Below, in pieces: positions 8,792 to 40,318 of a stretch of 64,000 nt of DNA. Under the pieces are notes generated by a model that was not told the DNA's origin, searched no databases, and worked only from the letters and a program-made list of their open reading frames with translations. This DNA is from Callorhinchus milii (lineage: Eukaryota): NCBI RefSeq assembly GCF_018977255.1, contig NW_024704742.1, positions 124,001-188,000 on the forward strand. Direction: 5' to 3'. The number at the start of each line of letters is the position of its first letter. Position 1 is the first letter of the stretch. A program made the position numbers and the translations under genes.

Positions 8792-8848
8792 GGGTGACCT
8801 GCAGGCAATCGCAGCAGCAAAGAGCTGGAAGTCAAGCCAAGAACAAGA

Positions 8849-8927
8849 ATGAGGTGCAGAATTCTTGTGGTCCTCATGCTGCTTGGATTTTGTGCACCTT
8901 TCTGTAAAGCCAGGAGAACATCTCTTT
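8849..8927 (+). CDS. Chemokine A exon 1 (signal peptide)
   Basis: ATG AGG TGC AGA ATT CTT GTG GTC CTC ATG CTG CTT GGA TTT TGT gives a hydrophobic signal. Phase-1 donor T|gtatgt. CATAAAA lies about 60 nt upstream. Confidence 0.75.
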
Positions 8928-11900
8928 GTATGTAATATTTTAATATCTCGGCAATTTTCTCATTCTCTGCCTTGTGTGGAATACATTCCTGTACTTTACC
9001 ACTTTCTGTTCTTTGCATGTGAAAGGTTTACCTGTATTTGTCATTCCCTCTCTTCATTATTTGATAAACTAAATTTGATTACTTCATACAAATAAATTGT
9101 TTATTTTCTATACAGTCAAACCTGTCTCAAACAACCTGGGCCAAAGTGGGCCACCAAGTAAGGGTTTGTTGGTGTGTGAACCAGGCTGTCCAGGGTGTTC
9201 CAGGGTGACTGTTAACAGGGGGTGGTTGCTGAATGGAAGTAGTTACTTGACTATATTTAAAAATTAAAGTGCGAGAAATGTTAATACAGACAGTGTTAAA
9301 CTTTTATGTTTGAGCGAGTGAGTGACTTCTAATTAATGGCAGTATTCTTTCATGTATTAATACCTTTACATTTGATATTATTTATCGGGATTGTCAATTA
9401 ATATTCTTCTCAAAGTAAACCATCTGCTAATTTTGTAAAGTAAATATTTAAAATCTGTCCACTGGGTCAATGACTGTAAAAGTTTGAATGAGTAAAAACT
9501 CAGCAAACTTTGCATATAAATATGGATATTTGAACTTTATACCCTAGAAATTCCCTTTACAGTTCGAATAGTACCTTAAAATCTTGAATGTCCATCTGAA
9601 CAGGCAGGTAGGTCTCATCCAAAGGTTAGTACCTCCAACAATGCAGTGCATCTTCAGCACCACATTGGAGTACTAGCACCAATGACTATATGAGTTCCAA
9701 CTCCCATTACAATTTACAATCTATACCAATAAAACGTCAATCTGTCTGTCTGTGTGCGCTTCAAGAAGGATCTCATAAATGATTGACGTATAGACATGAC
9801 TTATACCTCATCGGAAAGGTCTTGTAATGGGAGCGACATGGGCATATTTGTTTTCAAGTATCTCCTATTGTTCATGAGTTATAACCTAAATTGTATTTCA
9901 GTTTTGCATTTTTTTGCTGCAGTCACACCTGGTGGCCATGCCAGTTGCCCTAGGCAGTGTGGCATCGTGCATCACAGAGTAGCCAAGTAGCGATGGGAAC
10001 AAAATAAAGAACACAGATAAAGCTAGGCCACAGCAACAACAACAAAATTACATTTTTAAAACACCTTTCATGTTGGGAGGAAGTCTCATTATAAATTATA
10101 CAGTTATATTTATCATTATAAAGATGCTTAAGCAAAAATTAAACCTTTCAAGGATAAGCAAGTATGTCTGTCTGTGTGTCTGTCTGTGTGTCAATCTACA
10201 TTCCATGTTGCATCCTTTGGTTGCAAGCAAAGCTGCAACAGGTACAGCTAATATAGTATATTTCATATTGGGAGGATATCCCAAAGTGCTTACAAAGCTG
10301 GCTGGACACCTGAGCTAGGGGTGGAACTGTAGGGGGATGGAGAGCAGAAAGATGACCAAAAGCACGGTCAAGGAGGTAAATCTTGAGACCAGCCTTGAAA
10401 GAGTGGGGAGGGAGCTCCAGAGAACGGGGGCAGATGGCTGAAAGCCTACGCGCTTATGGTGCGGTAGATAGGGAAGGAGTCATGGAGCAAGTCATTGTTC
10501 GCTGAGCAAAAGGAGTGGCAGTTTGAAAGAAGTCATGGAAGTCAGTGGGACAAGACAACAGAGGGATTTGAAGATCACAATGAAAATCTTGAACTCAGTC
10601 CACTGGGGGATAGGGAGATAATTCCCTTTTAGAATAGCGAGACAGTGAAACAGGTGAGCCAACTAGTGGAAGTAGCTTCTTCCTGGTTAATTATCAAAAC
10701 TGTTAAAACCCTGTTAATAGGAACCTAGAAATCTACAGCGCAGAAGGGCCATTCAGCCCATTGAGTCTGCATCAGCTCTAAGAGTAAAATCATCTCAATC
10801 CCACCACTCTACATTATCCCTGTACCACTTCAAGCTAATCTCATTCATACGCCTGTATACTAGGAACTCCCCCTAAGAGCGTTAGCCCCAGCGCCTTGGG
10901 ACCTTCTCCTGACATGAAAGGCTCTATACAAATGTAATTTTGTATTGTATTAACATCTTTCCTGAAATGACTTGCTCAAACCTGGTTGCAGTACATAGTT
11001 GTGACCGAACCAATGATTTATACAAACGTAGTATTGTTGCTTTACTTTTGTACTCTATGCCCCTGTGTATTCTACCAGCAGGCTGTCTTTACACTCATTG
11101 TCATTTGCATAGTCACTTTCAATGACCTATGCATTTGCACTCCCAAATTCCTTTACTCCTCACTTCTTGGAAGATACTGTACTGCCTTTCAATATATTAC
11201 TCCCTCCTCTCATTTTTTTCTACCAAAATTCAATCCTAGTATTGTAGCATATCGGTTATAACGCTCGCCTCATAAGCCAGAGGACCTGGGTTTGATTCCC
11301 AGGCAGGGCAAAACGTTAGGCAAGTTTCCTTACTCCATGCGCCTCTGTTTATCTAGCAGTAAATGGGAACCCGGTTGTTATTTGATTGGTGGATGCATTT
11401 TCCAGGGGTAATAATCACTTCAAAAAAAAATCAAAAATAATAATTTGGTCACTCAATCTACGACTGTTAGTGTGGGGCACTGCGGTGCATAATTGGCTGC
11501 CTCATTTTACCCACAAAATATACAGTCAATGCACTTACAGTATATTCAGTGAAGCGCTTTGAGACATCTTGAAGACATGATAAGGCGATGTGTCAAATGC
11601 AGGATTATTATTATTACTAATCCTCATATCAAACCTAATGATGTTATGGTCGCATTTTGCTAAATGTTCTGCTACTCTTAGCATTAGTACTTACTGGTCC
11701 CATTTTACTTCCCGATAGTCCACAACAACTGCTGAACTCAGTCTGCTCTACTCGTGAACAAAATAAATTATTTTGAGATTGTGCTACTTGCCTCTAAAAT
11801 TGGAATAATCCCTTTATCCACTGTAATTTGTAGCTTCATATTCCGAAGGAAAAATGAAAACGTACCTACGTTGCCGATGTATCAAAACTCAGTCAACATT

Positions 11901-14531
11901 CATCCATCCAAAGCACATCACAAATGTTGACTTAATTACCAATGGCCCACACTGCAGTGTTGATGAAATCATGTAAGTGCTGTTCATGAAGTCTCACATT
12001 TATGGTTTATTATTAGAAGCAGTTTATTATTAGAAACAGTTACAATGATACAGTTTACACAAAAATTCTATCAGGTGGGATCATTGTACCCTTCAGGTTA
12101 AACATTAACCCGAGGTCCCATCTGCCTGTTCAAGTGGATGTTAAAGATCTCATGGCACTATTCATAAAGAGAAGGAAGCTTCTCTCAGTGCCTTGACCAA
12201 TTATCTCCTAGACAAAATTGGTCATTCATTCCATGGCTTTTTGTGGGATATTGATGTGTGCAATTGGCTGCCACGTTTTCCTACAGAATAAGCAGTCACT
12301 ACACTCTGTAGCACATCCTGTGATGCATTTTAAGCTGTTTCAATGTATTGATTTGTTGAATTATTACCACGGGCCAATATAGTGTAGCAAATTTCTGTGC
12401 ACAACATTGAATGTTGACTTCAGCCGCCAGCAAGTGGATAGCTACTAAATCAATCGGTATGGGAAACTTGGCATAGGAAATAAAATTATTATTATTATTA
12501 TTAAGTTGGAAAGTGAAGCATTTTCCTTGTTTTTCAGCATTACACTCATCAAAGGAAACAAAATCTGTTTGGATCCAAATGAAAAATGGGTGCAGATGGT
12601 TATCAATATAATACAAAGGTATTGCTTCACTTCTTCAATATAACAAAAAGATCTTTTGCAAAATTAAAATCCATCAACTACAATTATAAAAAGTGTGAAA
12701 ATGTAACATTTGACGTGATATTTACCATCAAGTTGAGTTAGGCCTGTGTTTGCCATTGAATTGTCAACATCCGGGACAGACTTATAGGCCACCCCAACTG
12801 GCTCAATAGTCATTGGGGCAGTTTCAGGTCCAACCATATTGATAAAGTTGAAGAGTCAGTTATCAGCTAAGACATTGACAAGAATAAGAATTTCCAACAA
12901 TGTAATAATATCATTATTATGATAATATCATTACTATCACATCGAATGTCTCATTTTGTCACCCCTTCGAGGTTGCAATTCTGGTAGCAAAATATTGCAA
13001 AAGTGCAGGCTTTTTTGAAAAGAAATTCTGTGCACAATTTTGAAGGCAGGATTCAGCGTCCAAGAAGTTGAAGGCTCCTAAGCGGTGGCGGTTTGGGTCC
13101 TCGAAAAGGCATGGGAGTTTCAGGTAAAAGGTGGACACTGATTCGCGAGGGCACCGATTTGGCATAAAACCTCTTTGCGTATTTAAAAATTATGTCGGGC
13201 ATGAAGGACTTTGAAGATGAATATGAGGATTTTGAAATCATTCCATTCAGTGATAAGGAACCAGTGGAGCCTGGATTGCACTGATGTGCTGGGGTACAGA
13301 GTTTAGTGCTAGTGAATATATGGGCTGCAGAGTTTTGGATTAACTGGATTTTGTAGATATCCAGTGAGAACGCAGGATGTCAATGGAATCCTGGAGAACA
13401 GAATCCTCAAGCACGCCCAGGATTTAATACATTATTATGTTCACGGCTAGTCCTCTAAGGGGACACTTTGATATTTGCTCAGCATTCAGTATCACACATT
13501 CCCCCATCCCCTGCCAACATCTGTGTGCAGTTCCCATCAAAGTGAAGGCTGTCAGGCCAGAGAGATTTTATTACACAAAGGATACAGAAAGCAGGAAAGG
13601 GGTTTGGAGATTATATGAAGTCCTGTAGCATAATGGTTAGAGCACTCACCTCGCAAGCGAGAGGACCTGGTTTGATTCCTGGGCAGGACAAAACATTACA
13701 CAAGTTTCCTTACTCAACACGCCTCACCCAATCCACGACTGTTTGTGGGATCCTGCTGAGCACAATTGGCTATCACGTTGCACCCACAAAATACACATGC
13801 AATTCACTTTATTCTGAGAGATATCTCATAAACGTGATAAAGCGCTATATGTGGAGTCCTGTAGCTCAGTGGTTAGAGCGCTTGCCTCGCAAGCAAGAGA
13901 CCTGGGTTCGATTCCCAGCAGGACAAAATCTTGGGCAAGTTTCCTTACTCCACACGCCTGATAATAATCCCTCAAGAAAAAAAAGCAATAATAATTTGGT
14001 CACTCAAACCACGATTGTTTGTAGGACACTGCTGTGCGCAATTGGCTGCCACATTTCGCCCACAAATATACTGTCACTTTACAGTATATTCCATGAAGGG
14101 CTTTGAGATGTCTAGAAGATGTGAAAAGCGCTATATCAAATTCAAGGATTATTATTATTATATCAAATGCAAGGATTGTTATTATTATATTAATGTATTT
14201 TCATCCTAAATACCAGTCTAATTTTGTTTGTAAAATTGTTCAGAGCTTGAAAAAATATTCACTGCATTACTGCAAACAGAACTTTAACAGCATTTTTAGG
14301 CCTAAGTGGGAGTGTGCCTATAAACCTATCTTAATATGTTTTATTTTTTTTCTAAAAATCAGATCACAAAGTTCTCCTGGTGGGCGGCGTCCAGCACGTC
14401 CATCAGTCGAAAGAAGTATGACGGAAATGGTCAAGGAATACATGGAGATCTTACTGATGGATGAAGATCTAATAAAGCCTCATTATTTGCGTCATCCTAG
14501 AAAATATGGTGGCAGACTATTCAATGAGTAA
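8849..14531 (+). CDS. CXC chemokine, CXCL8/IL-8-like (gene A), 4 coding exons, 155 aa with long C-terminal extension
   Basis: Exons 8849-8927, 11834-11972, 12538-12618, 14363-14531, all GT-AG with intron phases 1/2/2 typical of CXC genes. Translation: [155 protein letters not shown]. LRCxCIKT..FIHPK, GPHC..EII and ICLDP..WV are CXCL8 hallmarks. Exons 1 and 4 are less certain than 2 and 3. Confidence 0.85.
11236..11617 (+). mobile_element. tRNA-derived SINE in chemokine A intron 1
   Basis: Diverged head, body and tail of the same family. Confidence 0.85.
11834..11972 (+). CDS. Chemokine A exon 2 (CXC motif to Cys3)
   Basis: tttgtag|CT...[38 protein letters not shown]|gtaagt; 139 nt. Confidence 0.95.
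12538..12618 (+). CDS. Chemokine A exon 3 (Cys4, C-terminal helix)
   Basis: ttttcag|[29 protein letters not shown]|gtattg; 81 nt. Confidence 0.95.
13614..14190 (+). mobile_element. Two tandem tRNA-derived SINEs in chemokine A intron 3
   Basis: Heads at about 13614 and 13849; duplicated tail TATCAAATGCAAGGATT. Confidence 0.85.
14363..14531 (+). CDS. Chemokine A exon 4 (putative, 55-aa tail)
   Basis: The acceptor follows a T-rich tract (ttattttttttctaaaaatcag). The phase is compatible with exon 3 and the frame is open to TAA at 14531 in non-repeat sequence. ATTAAA lies near 14619. Confidence 0.65.
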
Positions 14532-14889
14532 CGCCACTGAATGCTATTCCCACTCACGTTGACAATGTGATGTGCAACCATTGTAGGTTCCAAACGATGG
14601 CAGAATCGCCATCTTGATATTAAAATCTTTATCAATAGTTAAAAAACTGCATGTAGTATATTTTATTTCCAGGTAACAGAAATCTTCCCTCATCTTCACG
14701 CATACAACAAATTACATTTATGTAGCGCCGTTCACATCGGAAGGACGTCCTAAGGTGCTGGATAGTCAAGGGTTTGCACCCGAGCTGGGGTTAGAATCAA
14801 GAGAATTGGAGGGTAGGGAGAGTGGGGGTAGGAGTGTGGCCGGTCTTGAGCTGGACCTTGATGAAGGCAAGGAATGGGACAAGGCAGAG

Positions 14890-22579: not shown

Positions 22580-22893
22580 TAAAGAGAAACATAGACATAA
22601 GGGCTCGAAACTAGGGTGACAGTGAGGTACGACACAGTAAAATGTCATCCGTCCACAGCAAATCACCGATATTGAACTCTTTCCCGTGACCCACGCTGCC
22701 GTGACCTGGAAGTTATGTAAGCCTTGCATTTATAGTTTATTGTTAGAGGCACGATCACACTGCTTTCACAACGATTCTACCGAGTTGGCAAGTGAAGCAG
22801 TTTTATTTTCAGGATAACTATTCAGAACAGAAACAAAACCCGTTTGAACGCTAAAGCAAGATGGGTGCAAAAGGTTTTCGTCGAGCGTCAAAG
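22580..22893 (+). pseudogene. CXCL8-like chemokine pseudogene (paralog of gene A), exons 2 and 3
   Basis: Exon 2 remnant 22580-22716 reads LG*Q*GTTQ*NVIRPQQITDIELFP/DPRCRDLEV AT|gtaagc, with three stops and two apparent 1-nt frameshifts. Exon 3 at 22813-22893 (81 nt) reads ITIQNRNKTRLNAKARWVQKVFVERQ with Cys4 changed to Arg. The upstream intron is alignable to that of gene A. Confidence 0.9.
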
Positions 22894-22957
22894 GTATTTT
22901 TTGATTTCTATAAAAAAATGCATTATATTATGTAAAATTAAAATCACATCATTCTTT

Positions 22958-31169: not shown

Positions 31170-31515
31170 ATAATAATCCTTGCATTTGATATAGTGCTTT
31201 TCACGTCTTCTCGACGTCTCAAAGCGCTTCACAGAATAGACTGTAAATTGAATTGACCGTATATTTGTGGGCATAACGCCAATTGTGCATAGCAGTGTCC
31301 CACAAATATTTGTGGATTGAGTGTTGTTTTTGAATTATTACATCCAGAAAGCGATCCACTAATTGATTAACAATCCGGTTCCTACTTATTGCTAGGTAAA
31401 CAGAGCAGGGTTGGAGTAAGGAAGCTTGCCTAAGGTTTTGACCTGCCTGGGAATCGAACCCGGGTTCTCTCACTTTCGAGGTGAGCGCTATAACCACTGA
31501 GCAGCAGGATTCCAG
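31170..31515 (-). mobile_element. tRNA-derived SINE just upstream of chemokine B
   Basis: Full-length reverse copy. Confidence 0.85.
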
Positions 31516-31873
31516 GCTTAACTAACTCTGCCCAATTATCGACTTCAACTTGGTAAGCAAAACTTTTTTTTTTTAAGACATATCAAGACATATCCAGGAG
31601 CTAATTCTTAGATGCCTCCTTTTTCTCTCAGATGGTCAAAACTCTAAGAGAGGCGAACTAGCATCTGGTTTCTATACTGACGCGACTTCCTAATATGGAC
31701 CAGAAACCATCTCTTGTAGTTATTTAAGGAAACAAGCTCACAAAACAGGCAAAAAAAGTTGTTCAGTTTCATACGGTTGATAGGTACAGAATCAAGCTAA
31801 CAGTTTAGGTACGGAACAAAACCGGCAGTGAGAAGACAAAGAGTGGTCTTGTGATTGACTGTTTTTTCTGGCA

Positions 31874-31937
31874 ATGATGAGTCACTGTCTACTGGGAGCC
31901 CTTGTTGCAGTTCTGCTTTATGCAACTTTTGTGACAG
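31874..31937 (+). CDS. Chemokine B exon 1 (signal peptide)
   Basis: [22 protein letters not shown]|gtaatt; 64 nt, phase 1. TATTTAAG at 31721. Confidence 0.85.
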
Positions 31938-34900
31938 GTAATTGTTCTATTATTATTTTATATAGTGTTTTATTCTGAGTATGCCTTTAATTTACTGACT
32001 AGCCAGGCTAGTGTCTTTGCACAATTATTGTTTAAACGCTACCCTGCATTAGGGGGGCTGTGTAAATACAAATTGTTGTTGTTGACCCACTGGTATCAGT
32101 CAATGTATTGCACCTATGGTTTTTTGATTTGTACATTTGCAATGCATTGATGGAATGAGATTCAGCATGAATGGAGTCTTCAAAGTATGTTTGTGAACAC
32201 TAATGTTGTATATCAAACATAGTATTCCAATCGCTATAACATGGAACAAACTCATAAAGGAAACAGCCTTCATAGATTTAACTCGATTAATTTTTTTGTT
32301 CAGATATCCAGATAGAGCTTTCAAACACCTGTTTCACTTTATCATTAGAAAGCTGGATATTTTGTTAAGAACAGGATTCAAAGTGCAGGTAGAAGTGATT
32401 AAACATTGCATGAAAGACGATTGCTCCCATGTTTTCAGCTCAAATAAAAGGCACGTCATTGATAGAGTGTTTAGTACCGGAGAAAGCTGCTTTGAGACAT
32501 CCTCCTGATTTGAAAGGCACTATACGAATGTAAAATATTTGAAATTTTTGTTGCAGTTTCACATGATTATGTACAAGGGCAAAATATGTATCAGCCTGAC
32601 TCAGGTTAACAGCACTCCTGCTTTTGCGTCAGAGATCGAAGTTCAAGCCCCACTTTGGGACATTGAGCTCACAGTCTTGGCTGATACTCCAATGCATTAT
32701 TGGGGATGTGCTGCATTGTTAGAGGGCTGTCCTTTTGATGAGGGGTTAAACTAACGCCCAACCAGGCTGAAACACCTTGCTGCATTCTCCCCCCATCCCC
32801 AACCACCCCCACGGTGACTAGTTTCCAGAATAGTGTCTGTTTTATCTAAGAATAGAGCCATATTATTAGCTTATCAAATGCAAGGATTATTATTATATAT
32901 CATGGAAATTACAGTACAGAAAGCCATTCAACTCATTGAGCCTATGCTGACACCACTGCAGCAATGTACATTAATACCAACTCCCTGCTCTTTCCAAANT
33001 TTTTTTTACATTGTACATTTTATTCTTTCAATACATATCAGTGTCATTGAGTGTCATTACGGTCTTAGGTTCAACAGTCAGTCTTGGCAAACAATTCCAT
33101 GTTTTAATAATCCTCTGCGTGAAGTTTCTTCTAACCTCCACTCTAAGGGGTACAAGTCCCCCAGGAATTCAGGTGGACATTAAAGATCCCAATACTGCTG
33201 CATAAAAAGAGAAGAGAGTTTTGCTTGGCTTCCTACCCCAATTAAAATGTGTTATTACGTTCATGGCTGTTGTGGGATAATCCTGTGTGCAAATTAGTTG
33301 CAAATTCGCTCAACAACAACAATTTACATTTATGTAGCGGCATTCACACAGGGTAGTTTCGGAGTGCCTACAAAATACAGATCTTTACAGCAAAATCCTT
33401 CACTATAAAAGTGCTTTGAGACATTCTCCTAACGTGAAAGACATGGTCCCCAAATGCAAGAATTATTATTATTATTTATATCAGTACATCCAAGTACATA
33501 TTTCTCAGAAAGGAAACTACTGAGAAATAAATACATATTGAAACCAACCGCCTTCCTCCTATTTGCTATTTGATAATAAGAGTGCTCAGATTTAATCACT
33601 TTTGTCTGTCTTCACAGCCTCTTCGCCAACGACAACAGTTCTGATTGATTCAAAATGTAAATGTTTAAAAGTGACATCCAGAGAAGTAAACCACCATGGC
33701 GTGAAGGAGCTTGCGAGAGATATAGAGATTGTGTGAGTAGATACTATGTTGTATACTTTCTGGGCAATCTTCAAGCCTGGATTGCAGTGATGTGCTATAG
33801 TTAGCATGTACAGTTATATACAGTGCTCCTTTCTGGCACATTAGCATTGCACAAATTGTATTGTATCCTCATTTCAATAAAGACTTTCACAAACTGAGGT
33901 CATCGGGTTTTAAGGGCAAGACATGGAATCAGCATTGGCTGAAGGGAAGAAAGCAGAAGTTCTATGTTAGGGGAGCTCGGTCAAAACGTGGGGAGGTATT
34001 AAGTGGGATGCCTCAGGGGTCGGCATGGGACCCCTCCTGTTCCTCATATATATTAATAACCTGGATTCACAGACCCAGTGATAGGATAAGGTAGTTGAAT
34101 TTGACAATGACAAAATGTTAGGCAAACTATGGAATCAGCAAAGGTCCTACAAAGAGCTGGATAGGGTATGCACATGAGCTGATAACTGGCAAATGAAGTT
34201 TAAAACAGATAAATGTCAGGTGCTATTCCTAGGAGTTAGTTCCATGGATGGGATAGAACTTATCAAGGGAAAAGCTAAGTGTTTTAGTTGACTCATCGCT
34301 CATTATGTCAAAACAAGCTGAGGCAGCAATGAACAAGGCAAACAGGACCCTGGGCTATATTGCCAAATCTGTTGAGTTCAGATCCCCATAGATCATACTC
34401 AGGCTGTAAAGTGCTCTGGTGAGGCTGCACTAGAGAATTGCGCACAGTTCTGGGTGATGCAATAAGGGAACATAAGGGAACTGCCCAGTATAAGAAGAAT
34501 GTGCTCAGAGCAATGATTCGACAAGTTAGGGCTCTTCAGGTGTTAGCACACTTAAACCAAGATCCTGTCTGCTTGCGCAGATGCACGTTAAAGATCCCAT
34601 GACACTATTCAAAAAGAGAGGGGAATTTCTCTGGTGCTTTGGCCAACAATCCCCCAGATGAAATTAGTCATTCATTTCATATTGTTTTGTGCAAAATCAT
34701 TGCGCACAAATTGCCTGCCACATTCGTCTCCAAAATACACAATCAATGTACATTACAGTAAAATCCTTTGATGTGCTTTGAGACATCCTTCGAATGTGAA
34801 AGGAGCTGTTTAACTGCAAGGATTATTTATCTGCCTCAGGGACATAGTTCTAATGTAATCTGTAGCAACAAAAATACAATGTCACCCAAAGGTTTTTAAG

Positions 34901-36997
34901 TAGATTCCGTTGAAGTCATCAATACAGTCGATTCTGACAATGAGGGGAAAATAATTTTAATTATAGATTTCATCTGAGGTGAAGCACATTTAAAGATTGT
35001 GATAAAAATATCACTTTAGTTTGGTTTATGTAGAGATGATATGAAATTACTAAAAAATTTAAATATATTTTATTAAATAATAATTAAATATTAAATGTTT
35101 TGAATTTAAATTTTACTTTAGTCAATTGTTCTGCTTTGGGACAGTAACACAATTAAAATAATAATGTATGAGGGTTTAGCTAGATGTGCTGAATTAAATT
35201 TCATTCTCACATCCACATCTTCTTGTGTTTGACGGTTTATCCCATCCTTTAGATGAGACGTTAAACCGAGACCCTGACTGTCTCTTCATTTGGACGTTAA
35301 AGATTCCACGACACTATTCGAAAAGAGACCGGAGTTTCTCTCAGTGTCCTAGCTGACAATCCCGCAAAAAAAATTGGTCATTCACATCATAATTGTTTGT
35401 GGGCAATTGTTATAATAAAAAAACTTTGCATTTGATATAGTGCTTTTCACGTCTTCTAGATCTGACAAAGCGCTTCACAGAATATACTGTAAAGTGAATT
35501 GATTGTATATTTGTGGGCGAAACACGGCAGCCAAATTGCGCACAGCAGTGTCCCACAAACAGTCGTGGATTACATTACAGTATATCCCATGAAGGGCTTT
35601 GGCATATTCTTCTGACATGAAAGGCACTATTTTAAATTTAAGGATAATTATTATTTTATTATTACTATTTATATATTCAGATACTGCCAGATCATCTTAA
35701 CATTTCAATCGACTTACATTCTGGGTTGGTTGAGGATGGAAATTACTTGTTATAACATCAGAACAGAGGGAGAGGTACTGGGAGTGGGTGTTTAGCAGTT
35801 TTGAGTTGCTAGATATGAGCATGCACACTAATTTCTTGGGAAAACTGTTGGTGGAGATAAAGCAAACTTTCAATAGCCTATTTTTTTTTGGCTTTCCGCT
35901 CAGCACAGTGTGTGAGATGACCTGCATGCATCAACTTCCCAAGTCTCTGGCTATTTTGCTGGGACAATTTTATAAATAACCTTATGTACTATTTTCTTTT
36001 AAAAAAGACATGAAAACATAAACCTCATCGAAGCTGGCTTTGATCAGACTAGAGTGGCGGAGGGCCAAAACGGTGTAATCAAAAAAGGGACAGCAAATGA
36101 CAAATTTTGTATCGGATACACGGCACGGAAACAGGCCATTTGGGCCAACTAGACTGTGTCTGTCATGCTGCGGTCCACTTTACGAATTGAATGATAAAAA
36201 AAATAATTTGGTCACTCAATCTACGACTGGTTGTGGGACGCTGCTGTGCGCAATTGGCTGCCGTGTTTCTCCCACAAAATATAGAGTCAATCCACTTTCC
36301 AGTATATTCTGTGAAGCGCTTTGAGACGTCTCGAAGGCAGGAAAGAAAAGGATTTTGTGCCNAAAAAAATCTGTGTTTTTTTAAAGAGCTTATTTCTAAA
36401 ACCATCTTTGAATTATGGGTAAACCTTTTGTTTATTTTCTCTCATGTTTTGTACTTAATCTTTTACATTCTGTGCAGTTATTTGGTATTCTTTTAGAGAT
36501 TCCTTAATTAAACTACTGAATTATAATTGAAAAACATTCAATTGGCAACATTATTATAATTTCGCCTCCTAAGGAGATTGTATATCGAAATCCAGGCTTC
36601 CAATTGTCCATTGGTAGCTAGTCTGAGCTTGTTGTCTGCACCCGTGGTTAGTTAGTGCACTCCCCACACTCGCTGGAGGGGAATGACTTGATGTAACAGG
36701 TTACAGAAACATTCGAGAAGCCTAGACCGTGACAACTACATAAAATCATGATACTTACTTACGATGACTAATTTCCTCCTGTTGCAGAGTTCCAATGAGA
36801 AGCAGGGAGAAGATTACTGATCCACACTCTGGCCCTCGGACCAAGTTTGTCTACCAAATTTCAGATTTGTAAGTCTTCTCATTCTTCAAATGTGTAAACA
36901 CCGAAGACGGCTGATCACTTGACACCTCTTCCTCAAGTATCCATATTTGTATTTATTTCTATACAGGCTCCGTGATAAACAGAACGCATCTCTTTGA
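31874..36997 (+). CDS. Atypical CXC-chemokine-like protein (gene B), 4 exons, 96 aa, lacking Cys3 and Cys4
   Basis: Exons 31874-31937, 33618-33732, 36788-36868, 36967-36997, all GT-AG, phases 1/2/2, with no stops. Translation: [102 protein letters not shown] at 37934. Confidence 0.75.
33618..33732 (+). CDS. Chemokine B exon 2 (CKC motif, Cys3 segment missing)
   Basis: gtcttcacag|[41 protein letters not shown]|gtgagt; 115 nt. Confidence 0.85.
33920..34540 (+). mobile_element. CR1 LINE fragment in chemokine B intron 2
   Basis: [16 protein letters not shown] and [10 protein letters not shown] motifs; degraded. Confidence 0.8.
36788..36868 (+). CDS. Chemokine B exon 3 (Cys4 missing)
   Basis: gactaatttcctcctgttgcag|[29 protein letters not shown]|gtaagt. 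81 nt, the same length and phases as exon 3 of gene A and of the pseudogene. Confidence 0.75.
36967..36997 (+). CDS. Chemokine B exon 4 coding part
   Basis: atttatttctatacag|[13 protein letters not shown] after a 98-nt intron. Confidence 0.65.
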
Positions 36998-37933
36998 TTA
37001 TCCACTCGTAGATATCTTAATTCATCCTAATCTTTTAAGTGGGTCAGATTATTAGCTGTGGAGTGTCTGTGGTTGTGGTTTCCCCGGCAGACCTCTGATG
37101 AACACACAGTGATGCAGTGCTGTGTGAGGGAGAGCTGCATTGCCGGAGGTGGTATCTTTTGCATAAAACATTAAACCAATGTTAAATTTGACTATTCTAG
37201 GTGGGCATTAAGAATACCATGACACAGTTTGAAAGAAAAAGGAAGAGTTATTTTTGTTCGGCCGGGTGTCTGACACATGTGGAAACCTATTATACTCTGA
37301 TTAAGAGTATCCAAATCAGACTGAGTATTCTACATATGTATGCTACGCACACATGGAAATTCATTTAAACCGATCTTGTAATCTTATGATTTGATCCGAT
37401 GCTCTTTTTTCCCCTCAAGTACCATTTTTTAAAGGACTAGAAATGGTTTGTGTTTAGCCAATATTATAATAGCACAAGGGGCTATTGTTGGACACCTCAA
37501 AGATTAGCAGTAGTCGGGCTTTGAGACATCTCGATGATGTGACAGGTCATTCTATCAAATGCAAGGATTACTATTCCACTGTATATTGCCCTGGTCAGTC
37601 GTACCCTGTACAAAGGATTAATGTGTGCCTAATGCCAGTTATGTCATGTAATTCATTGCAGCCTCGAAAATTGTGTCGGAGGGCCAAAAACATTGAAAGA
37701 GGGAGATGACGCAAATGAACCGATGTGCAATCCTGCACCTCCACCTGCTGACACCTGTTATGGCTATGACAGCAACATACATATAAACATGAGTCCTCCA
37801 ACAGTGAGACCACGATCTGTTCGGCATGACTTTATGTCAGATGCACCATAGATTGCTTCTGTGACCATGTCATGCAGCTGCAACTGTGTTTATTTTCTTT
37901 TGCTTACTTTTAGTAGACCATTTCTGTTATTTC

Positions 37934-37939
37934 AATAAA
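37934..37939 (+). other. Putative polyadenylation signal of chemokine B
   Basis: AATAAA in a T-rich context about 940 nt after the stop codon. Confidence 0.45.
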
Positions 37940-40318
37940 AGATTATTTTCCAAATTATGTAATTTGACGAGATGTCATGATCCATGTTACTCCCATCCTC
38001 CTGAACAGGATGCATGGAATGGCATCACATAGAAGCACACAAGTCTGTGTAAGTGCACAATTGAATTGGATCATGCTGTCTTTGCCTCTTCTCCAGTGAT
38101 TAAAAAAAATGTAAAACAATAAAATGTTATGCTTTCAAATACCTGAGCATGTGCGTCTTAGGTCTGTATTGGTCAATTTAGGGATTACAAAAAGCTTGGT
38201 GGTGAATTCTAAACACCAGATTACGGCTCTCCTGCTTGGCTCCTGTCAGCATCTGCATTACCTCAGGCACTGATCTATCCAGAGACTCGCGCCACCTCAT
38301 GGAGCTTACATCCAAGCTCTTAATCATTCTCTCTTCCCTCACCTCACAACATTGGCAGTTCCACCTCTATCTCAGCCCTCGGGCTGCTGAGATCCTCTTC
38401 CATACCCGCAGCACATCAGGTTTGATTACCAACACCTTCTAACCAGACTCGCCAGCTCCTCACTATACAACAACTTGCATTTATTGTGCCCCTCATGCAA
38501 GATTATGACAAGACTCACACATTTCTTTCTGCGCTGCTCTGTGCTGCTCACAAGGAAATTCTCAGGGAGATTCTTGGCACCTGCCATCCACCTAGTGAGG
38601 GATCCAACCTGCACTTGGATGTCAAATAATCAACTAGGGACTATCCTCCATGAGCCAGGGGAGGGGAGGGAGGAAGGAAGCAGGGTCACCTTGCAGTTGA
38701 ACTGGTTTCAATATGACCTGTTTGGCGATGGATTGTCAGAACAGAATCAGTCCTTTGTGGCAGTCTCATGAGTCTGGTTTCTAAGCCAGGCAGGTCTACA
38801 GATCTCTAGAACACTGCTGATGACAGGCCTGTCCACTCAGCTCCTGTTAACCCTGCAAAGCAAAGCCCTAAGAACACCTCTCTCCTCAACCTTGTTCCTC
38901 CAACCCTCACCCACCTGTCACGTGAGGTACTTTGAAAAATCCTTCCAATGTGCAAGGAACACTATAAATGCACGTTGGTGTCTCTGTTTCAATACCACCA
39001 TCTGGTGGTAAGATCCTGCCCATGTATATGAAAAGGTGAATCATTGTGGAGCAATAGTACACCATCTAGTGGCTCTCATTTTATCAAACTGTGTTGCCCG
39101 AGGTATCCAACCTCCTAATACTTTAATACCTCACCCAGATAAGAGAAAATGTTAAAACTATTGGGGTTTGCTGTACATTACCCAACATTTTCTAAAGGGA
39201 AAAGAAAAGGAAGGTTTTGAAAACATGGCACCTGAATTGCTCTAATGAGTCTCAATTTGACCATTCAAGTACTGAAACCATTTTTGAACACAGTCCAAAA
39301 TGTTATGCGGGCAGTGATGAGAGCTCTAACATAATAAAAATGTAATGTATTAAAATGAAATAATGTAATAAAAATAGCCTAAATAGATTACTTAAAAACA
39401 AACTTGGTCATCTATTTTAAGATGCAAGAAATGTAGAAACATTTTCAAAATTGAAAAAAAGATGTATTTTCTCAGTAATTTTTTTGGGTTGCACCATGGT
39501 TGATACATAACAAGCCATTGCCAACACATTTTTGATGTTACTCTTATTACAGTAATACCTTATACATGTAAAGCGCAAATTGTTTTCATGATTACCAATG
39601 TCTACATTTAGGAGCTGGACAATTAAGCCTTTATATTAGTGGCTAAATGCATTAGTACGCAAATATACAAAATTTACTAGGTCTTTAAACCTCTAGCCAA
39701 AAAGTGCTTGTATGGGCCTTCAACTTCAATGTATTCTGATGGTGGTCACTAGTCGTGAAGCAAGACAGTGCCTCGATACACATGTTTCCAGCAGTCTACT
39801 GCAACTTTCTCTCTCCCCCACCCCTGGTACATAGACACTCTCTGTGTGGAGGTTTGTTTTGCAAAATTCTCTCCACATAACCACTGTAATACCAAAATAA
39901 GAGACATTATACATAGGAAGGGGAGGCATTGCAACTGAAAACCAGTGACCAGAGTCCTTAATCCATCAAATCTTGATCACAGGAATTAGGTTTTAATACT
40001 AATTACATTCCTGCCAATTCAATAAACTTCTCCTAGACATTTGGTCTTTCATCTCCTTATTGGTCCAACTCATGTCTGAATGAATCAGATTTCTACAGAC
40101 TGACTTCATGTATTATGAGAAAGTATTCCCTTTATATCTCAACAGCAAAATGGCAAGCACTATAGACATTGAAAAGGGGCTAGTATGCAAAGCGTTAGCA
40201 GCAAATCTTAAAATGTGTTTTACAAGATTGTTCATCGAAGTATTTGCATAATAAAGCCATCAATGATTCTACACAGCAATAATCTCAAATCTTGCAGAAC
40301 TGCCTCCTTCAGAAGAAA

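Follow-up and report, generated by a model that had tools for sequence, protein, structure and literature searches.

In the elephant shark Callorhinchus milii, an apparently atypical chemokine gene proves to be JCHAIN, which encodes the immunoglobulin J chain

The window analysed here, 64,000 nucleotides of C. milii DNA (RefSeq assembly GCF_018977255.1, contig NW_024704742.1, positions 124,001 to 188,000), contains a gene of four coding exons on the plus strand, with GT/AG splice sites and phases 1-2-2, that we identify, with very little room for doubt, as JCHAIN, which encodes the joining (J) chain of elephant shark immunoglobulin. Exon 1 (31751–31937) carries the 5′ UTR and 64 nt of coding sequence from the ATG at 31874, encodes the signal peptide and ends in phase 1; its 5′ end is placed from the 123-nt 5′ UTR given in Dataset S1 of Kawasaki et al. 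(PNAS 2024, PMC10801876), whose coordinates were shifted by an offset that also puts the ATG of the neighbouring cxcl gene (gene A) in its correct position. The TATA-like box of the original prediction, TATTTAA, can be read directly from the sequence at 31722–31728 on the plus strand, 23–29 nt before this probable RefSeq mRNA start, and may function as such. Exon 2 (33618–33732, 115 nt) encodes the start of the mature protein with its CKC motif (Cys35 and Cys37) and ends in phase 2, and exon 3 (36788–36868, 81 nt), also ending in phase 2, encodes the ...DP.S..R..F.Y..SD region, the part of J chains that is best conserved. The coding part of exon 4 (37662–37851, 187 nt plus a TAG stop) follows an AG acceptor that keeps the frame, and supplies Cys91, Cys109, Cys119 and a C-terminal SDAP motif. 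The 3′ UTR extends in spliced contigs from 37852 at least to 38101, with candidate polyA signals in or after it at 37934 (AATAAA), 38099 (ATTAAA) and 38118 (AATAAA), all on the plus strand. The precursor has 149 residues, of which the first 22 form a signal peptide cut at the exon 1/2 boundary as judged by alignment with human J chain, leaving a mature protein of 127 residues with a near-neutral pI of 6.49.

Assembled contigs from three runs of unstated tissue, in two studies (X1, 809 nt; X5 and X6, 906 nt) join 31937 to 33618, 33732 to 36788 and 36868 to 37662, each with GT..AG ends; runs X1–X8 are classed as RNA by guess only, and the DNA-like run X9 contains none of the three joints. The X1 contig covers 31781 to 31933/37, continues at 33614/18 and reaches 38096, while the X5 and X6 contigs continue beyond 38200. 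Two artefacts that the original prediction had allowed for, a misassembled exon 2 and an exon hidden in gaps marked by N, are both excluded: an X9 contig spans 33451–34056 ungapped, including exon 2, and the two intronic Ns are single letters that X5 contigs cross with no change in length.

We find that the product predicted here matches NP_001279351.1 (annotated as the C. milii immunoglobulin J chain precursor; NM_001292422.1, LOC103188310) at every one of its 149 residues, including 100% identity over the 62 residues from exon 4, and the locus differs in nothing from that gene. The database cluster of this protein has 22 nr/RefSeq members, the others differing from it by 1–3 residues each, and all 15 of the members listed are 148–149 residues long and named J chain. 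Row 218 of Dataset S1 (PMC10801876) is this gene as well, and its coding exons of 64, 115, 81 and 187 nt, its phases of 1-2-2 and its pI of 6.49 are the values that we compute from the window. A homology search with the whole C. milii J chain returns only its own cluster; a whole-library phmmer search gives 11 proteins at E ≤ 0.001, and the matches looked up are all J chains, from basking shark, great white shark, frog, coelacanth, lungfish and donkey. The J chain gene at this locus is thus real, expressed and already known, and its discovery value is none, as RefSeq already annotates it and a 2024 paper, with the locus in a supplementary table, set out its chemokine ancestry.

Profile searches agree with this assignment. 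The whole protein matches Ig_J_chain (PF15097; E 7.2e-21, 74.9 bits against a cut-off of 27), with residues 27–125 aligned to profile positions 4–104 of 134, and this is the sole family returned at E ≤ 10; exon 2 alone (E 4e-4) and exon 3 alone (28.9 bits, cut-off 27) likewise match only Ig_J_chain. The chemokine profile IL8 (PF00048), proposed as a check on the original prediction, finds no match at E ≤ 10 in exon 2, exon 3 or the whole protein. Exon 4 alone matches no Pfam family, so that what assigns it to the gene is its identity with the database protein, the spliced contigs and conservation among cartilaginous fishes. Among solved structures, eight distinct J-chain sequences match, the best (E 1.4e-18) being human J chain in IgM/IgA complexes, and the shark CKC falls on the human CKC in this alignment. 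An AlphaFold2 model computed on an 11-row alignment has a mean pLDDT of 51.4 and a pTM of 0.38, too poor for structural statements.

Four coding exons with phases 1-2-2, a third exon of 81 nt and a signal peptide that ends at the exon 1/2 boundary are the organisation of a J chain gene; exon 3 measures 81 nt in all 16 JCHAIN rows of Dataset S1, and exon 2, 115 nt in C. milii, is 121–127 nt in the other rows. Relatives were collected by the phmmer search and a further search that started from the basking shark protein, giving an alignment of C. milii and 14 other chondrichthyan J chains (n = 15) in which the C. milii protein is 42–52% identical to the others. The elasmobranch proteins (basking shark XP_078396350.1, great white shark, whale shark, catsharks, rays and skates) have the same conserved core, with P62, D71, P72, S74, F80 and Y82 of exon 3 falling in invariant columns, and the C-terminal SDAP is common to 12 of the 15. 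Sharks and rays differ from C. milii in a middle segment of exon 4 that carries further cysteines and is absent from the latter. Human J chain (8bpe_J, 6kxs_J, 6ue7_D) shares the CKC, the conserved exon-3 block and the equivalents of Cys72, Cys92 and Cys101, and its gene likewise has four exons with phases 1-2-2 (PMC10801876). The C-terminal third of the C. milii protein is divergent from the human one; a review describes C-terminal conservation among cartilaginous fish J chains as poor (PMC4279169).

The neighbourhood is that of a CXCL cluster. CXCL8-like gene A (cxcl LOC103188309) lies upstream of JCHAIN, and an annexin repeat lies downstream on the minus strand at ~45.7 kb; this is the chondrichthyan arrangement as published, a CXCL8-like gene upstream and anxa5 adjoining, in which Dataset S1 gives the order cxcl LOC103188309, jchain LOC103188310, anxa5 (PMC10801876). 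A wrecked CXCL8-like pseudogene lies at ~22632–22951, in agreement with the original prediction, which had noted a pseudogene nearby. JCHAIN has the organisation of a chemokine gene, with four exons, phases 1-2-2, a CXC motif in exon 2 and a place in the CXCL cluster, and it shares with gene A the strand, the exon number, the phases, the CXC early in exon 2, the length of exon 3 (81 nt) and a signal peptide that ends at the exon 1/2 boundary. The exons of gene A match Pfam IL8 (24.7 and 26.3 bits) and encode all four chemokine cysteines and a WV motif. The J chain has no IL8 match, no WV and not the four cysteines of the C1-C3, C2-C4 pattern: its CXC pair alone stands at chemokine positions, and its other three cysteines lie in exon 4.

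The chemokine ancestry of the J chain has already been published for this very locus: Kawasaki et al. (PMC10801876) argue from the exon-2 CXC, the 1-2-2 phases, the 81-nt third exon and CXCL linkage that the J chain is a co-opted CXCL chemokine, and place it by descent in the CXCL gene family. The reading of raw sequence behind the original prediction independently recovered the same features, and was right in substance that a CXC chemokine gene had been repurposed into a translated, secreted protein, which is the J chain. Its count of residues also stands, with 20 between C2 and EI against 28 in gene A and an exon 3 of 81 nt in both genes. What does not stand is the view of the differences as recent, frame-preserving changes in a paralogue, namely an in-frame loss of 8 residues in exon 2 and a conversion of KICLDP to KITDP in exon 3: BLASTP of the second exons finds one 9-residue match around the CXC (E 0.009), and the third exons give no match. 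Searches of the window with blastn (31500–37400) return interspersed intron repeats only, with no exon match to gene A, and tblastn of the originally predicted 96-residue product at lax settings returns only noise outside its own exons. The absence of Cys3 and Cys4 is not recent, and the differences between the J chain and gene A are those of ancient divergence. The absent cysteines reflect an ancient re-wiring of disulfides that came after a neighbouring CXCL gene had duplicated in the ancestor of gnathostomes (Kawasaki et al. 2024, PMC10801876).

Kawasaki et al. (PMC10801876) raise the speculation that the cartilaginous fish J chain both joins IgM and keeps a residual chemokine-like or other immunoglobulin-independent function. 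The mature pI of 6.49, near neutral and unlike that of tetrapod J chains, which are described as acidic, is in keeping with such a function, as is expression of the J chain beyond plasma cells, with shark muscle and mouse dendritic cells as examples (both cited in PMC10801876); the C. milii protein has no match to the IL8 profile and none of the chemokine disulfides, and we consider this added role improbable.

Still less probable is the product originally predicted, a secreted chemokine of 96 residues that would found a new cysteine class, with C1 and C2 only, by splicing exon 3 to a terminal exon at 36967–36997, whether as the gene's chief product or as a minor alternative to the J chain. 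The four exons, GT/AG sites, 1/2/2 phases and open 96-codon frame of that model all exist as sequence, and both a pyrimidine tract and an AG mark its last acceptor, at 36967; the junctions of exons 1–3 recur in X1, X5 and X6. The proposed fourth exon and its polyA signal fare otherwise: in each of the three spliced contigs 36868 is followed directly by 37662, skipping 36967–36997, an intronic stretch with a short open frame behind a plausible-looking acceptor that the observed transcripts do not use. Of more than 1100 joints, the 15 best do not include 36868 to 36967, though a rare joint could be missing from such a list. The lengths of the database proteins (148–149 residues in 15 of 15 listed from the cluster of 22), the conservation of the distal exon 4, which 12 of the 15 chondrichthyan J chains share down to its SDAP, and the lack of an IL8 match at E ≤ 10 likewise argue against this model. 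With the last exon misassigned, three further cysteines were missed, so that the statement that only C1 and C2 are kept holds for exons 2 and 3, which have no cysteine besides the CKC, and fails for the protein, where the real exon 4 adds Cys91, Cys109 and Cys119; the product belongs to the J chain family (PF15097; NP_001279351.1) and to no new chemokine class. One wrong terminal exon can make a known gene look novel. That the locus is instead a CXCL8-like chemokine gene turned pseudogene too recently to have lost its open frame, as the missing Cys3 and Cys4 and the real pseudogene of the same CXCL cluster at ~22.6–22.95 kb might suggest, is rejected as vanishingly improbable, given splicing and assembly at depth in three runs, identity to the RefSeq protein, the 74.9-bit PF15097 match, cartilaginous fish orthologues at 42–52% identity and exons with no DNA similarity to those of the CXCL8-like gene beside it.

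We return to the J chain itself and to how it may be linked to immunoglobulin. Human J chain forms the disulfides Cys13-Cys101, Cys72-Cys92 and Cys109-Cys134, and is joined to heavy chains through Cys15 and Cys69; the second cysteine of the J chain CXC (human Cys15) makes the intermolecular disulfide to the heavy-chain tailpiece. The mature C. milii J chain has five cysteines, Cys35 and Cys37 from the exon 2 CKC and Cys91, Cys109 and Cys119 from exon 4. Cys37 aligns with human Cys15 and is thus the putative N-terminal immunoglobulin-linking cysteine. Cys35 and Cys119 align with human Cys13 and Cys101, and Cys91 and Cys109 with human Cys72 and Cys92, which suggests the same two pairs. The column of human Cys69, the second linking cysteine, is occupied by Leu88, and there is no cysteine after Cys119 and hence no equivalent of the human C-terminal pair 109–134. 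The N-glycosylation sequon is also absent, with K-I-T at residues 68–70 for N-I-S; Lys68, in the place of the glycosylated human Asn49, stands in a column that is at least 90% Asn.

By homology with J chains of known structure and biochemistry, the C. milii J chain would be secreted by plasma cells and built into polymeric IgM, with strands of its N-terminal half packing on heavy-chain tailpieces. Cys37 would form a disulfide with the penultimate cysteine of a μ tailpiece, while Cys35 would pair within the chain with Cys119 and Cys91 with Cys109. An intermolecular disulfide through the CKC, as originally suggested, is in agreement with J chains of known structure for the second of its cysteines, a correspondence that we draw from human biochemistry and the alignment. 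With Leu88 in the column of Cys69, Lys68 in that of the glycosylated Asn and no equivalents of the last two human cysteines, the human mechanism is not transferable whole to C. milii.

An equivalent of Cys69 is not universal in the J chain family, and its absence therefore does not exclude C. milii from membership. The cysteine is present in 13 of the 15 chondrichthyan J chains; C. milii and a sawshark sequence (P0034) keep the CKC and lack it. Galeomorph sharks present the mirror image, with CKL in place of CKC in 6 of the 15 and the Cys69 equivalent kept. Between them, the text and Dataset S1 rows of PMC10801876 and passages of PMC4279169 note the CKL state of sharks and do not mention the Cys69 state of the elephant shark. 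From these mirror-image states we draw a tentative reading, one that we think somewhat likelier to fail than to hold, in which the holocephalan J chain would be tied to IgM by one disulfide only, through the second cysteine of the ancestral chemokine CXC; one covalent link to a μ tailpiece would then suffice, and chondrichthyan lineages would have dropped different linking cysteines. The differing sets of immunoglobulin-linking cysteines in holocephalans, galeomorph sharks and other lineages are what this locus leaves of interest, and bear on how primitive IgM polymers hold their J chain.

We scanned the exon translations of JCHAIN and of gene A, the neighbouring CXCL8-like chemokine gene on the same strand, against Pfam, and find that exons 2 and 3 of gene A match IL8 (PF00048; 24.7 and 26.3 bits, cut-off 21.3). 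JCHAIN exons 2 and 3 match Ig_J_chain (PF15097; E 4e-4 for exon 2; 28.9 bits for exon 3, cut-off 27), which is the sole family found in the exons of this gene, with no IL8 match at E ≤ 10; exon 4 alone gives no Pfam match. The full product scores 74.9 bits against PF15097 (E 7.2e-21), again the only family found, hits eight distinct J-chain sequences among the solved IgM/IgA structures (best E 1.4e-18) and is identical at every residue to NP_001279351.1, "immunoglobulin J chain precursor". Over its 62 residues exon 4 shows 100% identity to the database entry "immunoglobulin-associated J chain [Callorhinchus milii]", a protein of 149 aa, and the C. milii J chain cluster has 22 members, with all 15 of those listed being 148-149 aa long. 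The predicted gene is real and expressed, and three of its four exons were placed correctly in the original prediction, but what it encodes is the known J chain and not the founder of a new chemokine cysteine class. The other listed cluster members differ from the window model at 1-3 positions, and single-residue variants among the cDNA-derived C. milii J chains, one of which carries Cys119 to Ser, may be clone errors.

The four exons originally proposed (31874-31937, 33618-33732, 36788-36868 and 36967-36997; 64, 115, 81 and 31 nt) have AG/GT boundaries, phases 1/2/2 and no stop, and encode 96 residues. Known J chains have a long fourth exon with more cysteines. 3' of the model, an open frame follows an AG acceptor on the plus strand from 37662 and closes with a TAG (37849-37851). 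Its inclusion brings the coding sequence to 64+115+81+187 nt plus stop, or 149 residues, with cysteines at positions 35, 37, 91, 109 and 119 and a further one, at position 5, within the signal peptide. A search of public sequencing runs with exon 4 and the 3'UTR finds a match in 12 runs from three studies, none recorded as RNA, the kind of run being guessed by the tool only. Four of these, X1, X5, X6 and the DNA-like X9, were aligned to window positions 31700-38200. Spliced contigs are present in X1 (809 nt, depth 122.8, extending from 31781 to 38096), X5 and X6 (906 nt), with joints 31937>33618, 33732>36788 and 36868>37662, all of them bounded by GT..AG, and none of the three joints is found in X9. 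The first two predicted junctions are thereby seen, and exons 1-3 stand; the predicted third joint, 36868>36967, is absent among the best 15. More than 1100 weaker joints exist, so a rare isoform may use it, but the spliced contigs use exon 4 at 37662. Two weaknesses weighed in the original prediction fall away: X9 spans 33451-34056 in one ungapped piece, and exon 2 is therefore no assembly artefact, and X5 contigs cross the two intronic Ns of the gene (32999 and 36362, among four single Ns in the window) with length unchanged, and the spliced contigs leave no space for a hidden exon.

The account of exons 1-3 and their neighbourhood was otherwise accurate. Gene A (8820-14570, plus strand; ATG at 8849 with 79 coding nt in exon 1, exon 2 at 11834-11972, 139 nt, exon 3 at 12538-12618, 81 nt) is an intact CXCL8-like gene with Pfam IL8 matches, a Y-L-R motif ahead of CRC, and the third cysteine 24 residues after CRC. 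Its exon 3 contributes C-L-D-P...W-V, and the gene has all four cysteines and the WV motif. The spacing from the second cysteine to E-I is 28 in gene A versus 20 in JCHAIN, and exon 3 is 81 nt in both, as predicted. The wrecked pseudogene is also there, at ~22632-22951 on the plus strand: a degraded copy of gene A exons 2 and 3 (66-69% DNA identity) with an in-frame stop, without CXC, with Cys3 and Cys4 both replaced and with the two exon pieces much closer together than in gene A. What does not hold is the proposed recent paralogue with several frame-preserving lesions. BLASTP aligns only nine residues around CXC between the second exons of JCHAIN and gene A (E 0.009 in a single comparison) and nothing between the third exons, and the locus DNA matches the rest of the window through intronic repeats only. 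The "missing" 30s loop and Cys4 reflect the ancient divergence of two protein families and are not chemokine deletions.

The evolutionary insight behind the claim is already published for exactly this locus. Kawasaki, Ohta, Castro and Flajnik (PNAS 2024, PMC10801876) make the case that J chain arose by evolutionary co-option of a CXCL chemokine, on the grounds of linkage to CXCL clusters, four exons with 1-2-2 phases, exons 1-3 of similar length, a signal peptide whose end falls at the exon 1/2 boundary and intrachain disulfides that differ completely, the same features that the original prediction picked up. Row 218 of their Dataset S1 lists jchain LOC103188310 (NM_001292422.1/NP_001279351.1; coding exons 64/115/81/187, phases 1-2-2, pI 6.49), with cxcl LOC103188309 (79/139/81/166, 'YLR'), our gene A, upstream and anxa5 downstream on the complementary strand. 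Our calculated pI of the mature protein (6.49), the gene A ATG with its 79 coding nt and an annexin at ~45.7 kb agree with these entries. The last is a minus-strand annexin repeat (G-A-G-T-N-E, then a typical annexin helix) at ~45693, in a gene spanning ~39.4-57.7 kb by Dataset S1 offset, which fits anxa5 placed as published for chondrichthyans.

The proposed working of the protein is based on homology to J chains of known structure. Human J chain is joined through Cys15 to the mu tailpiece cysteine and has intrachain disulfides 13-101 and 72-92. By analogy, the 22-residue signal peptide would be cut off at the exon 1/2 boundary and the mature protein built into polymeric IgM by secreting B-lineage cells, with Cys37 (human Cys15) forming a disulfide with the mu-chain tailpiece cysteine and with probable intrachain bridges Cys35-Cys119 and Cys91-Cys109 (human 13-101 and 72-92). 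Passages of a review (PMC4279169) hold that J chain is needed for pentameric IgM production in cartilaginous fish, and that mammal-like mucosal transport is unlikely there owing to the poorly conserved J chain C-terminus. AlphaFold2, run on an 11-row alignment, gives a model (mean pLDDT 51.4) that is too uncertain for use.

A phmmer search of the whole library with the product gives 11 relatives at E ≤ 0.001; the ones that were identified, from basking shark, great white shark, frog, coelacanth, lungfish and donkey, are J chains. Further searching yields 14 elasmobranch J chains and a 17-row alignment, 15 rows of it chondrichthyan, in which the elephant shark sequence shares 42-52% identity with the remaining 14. 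The SDAP C-terminus is shared by 12 of the 15, elephant shark among them; the CXC position is CKL in six (galeomorph sharks; five rows are so flagged in Dataset S1) and CXC in the other nine, including elephant shark. A cysteine aligns with the Ig-linking human Cys69 in 13 of 15, versus leucine in elephant shark (Leu88, 37663-37665) and sawshark. The conserved N-glycosylated Asn, at least 90% kept in the 17 rows, is Lys68 in elephant shark (36809-36811), where Asn129 is the only sequon. All 16 JCHAIN rows of Dataset S1 have an 81-nt exon 3, and exon 2 is 115 nt in elephant shark versus 121-127 nt in the others. Leu88, Lys68, the CKC/CKL state and exon 2 length are details that vary by lineage within a known family; J chains that retain just one of the pair of Ig-linking cysteines may be held to IgM through a single disulfide.

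A single offset puts the published coordinates of both jchain and gene A onto the window, with the RefSeq jchain mRNA starting at 31751, 23-29 nt after a plus-strand TATTTAA (31722-31728). The mRNA end falls at 38101, inside a genomic A-run just 3' of ATTAAA (region 38099-38123); X5 and X6 contigs extend beyond 38200, past an AATAAA at 38118, and the annotated 3' end may therefore stem from internal priming. X1 and X9 contigs carry A>C at 33688, which falls on the third position of an exon 2 Val codon and is synonymous in our reading of the frame. An interspersed SINE-like repeat of ~160 nt is very abundant in the window on both strands, with copies 72-89% identical at 35403-35571, 36196-36344 and over 25 further sites; jchain intron 2 holds two in opposite orientation, and this abundance accounts for the huge intronic contig depths in the locus.
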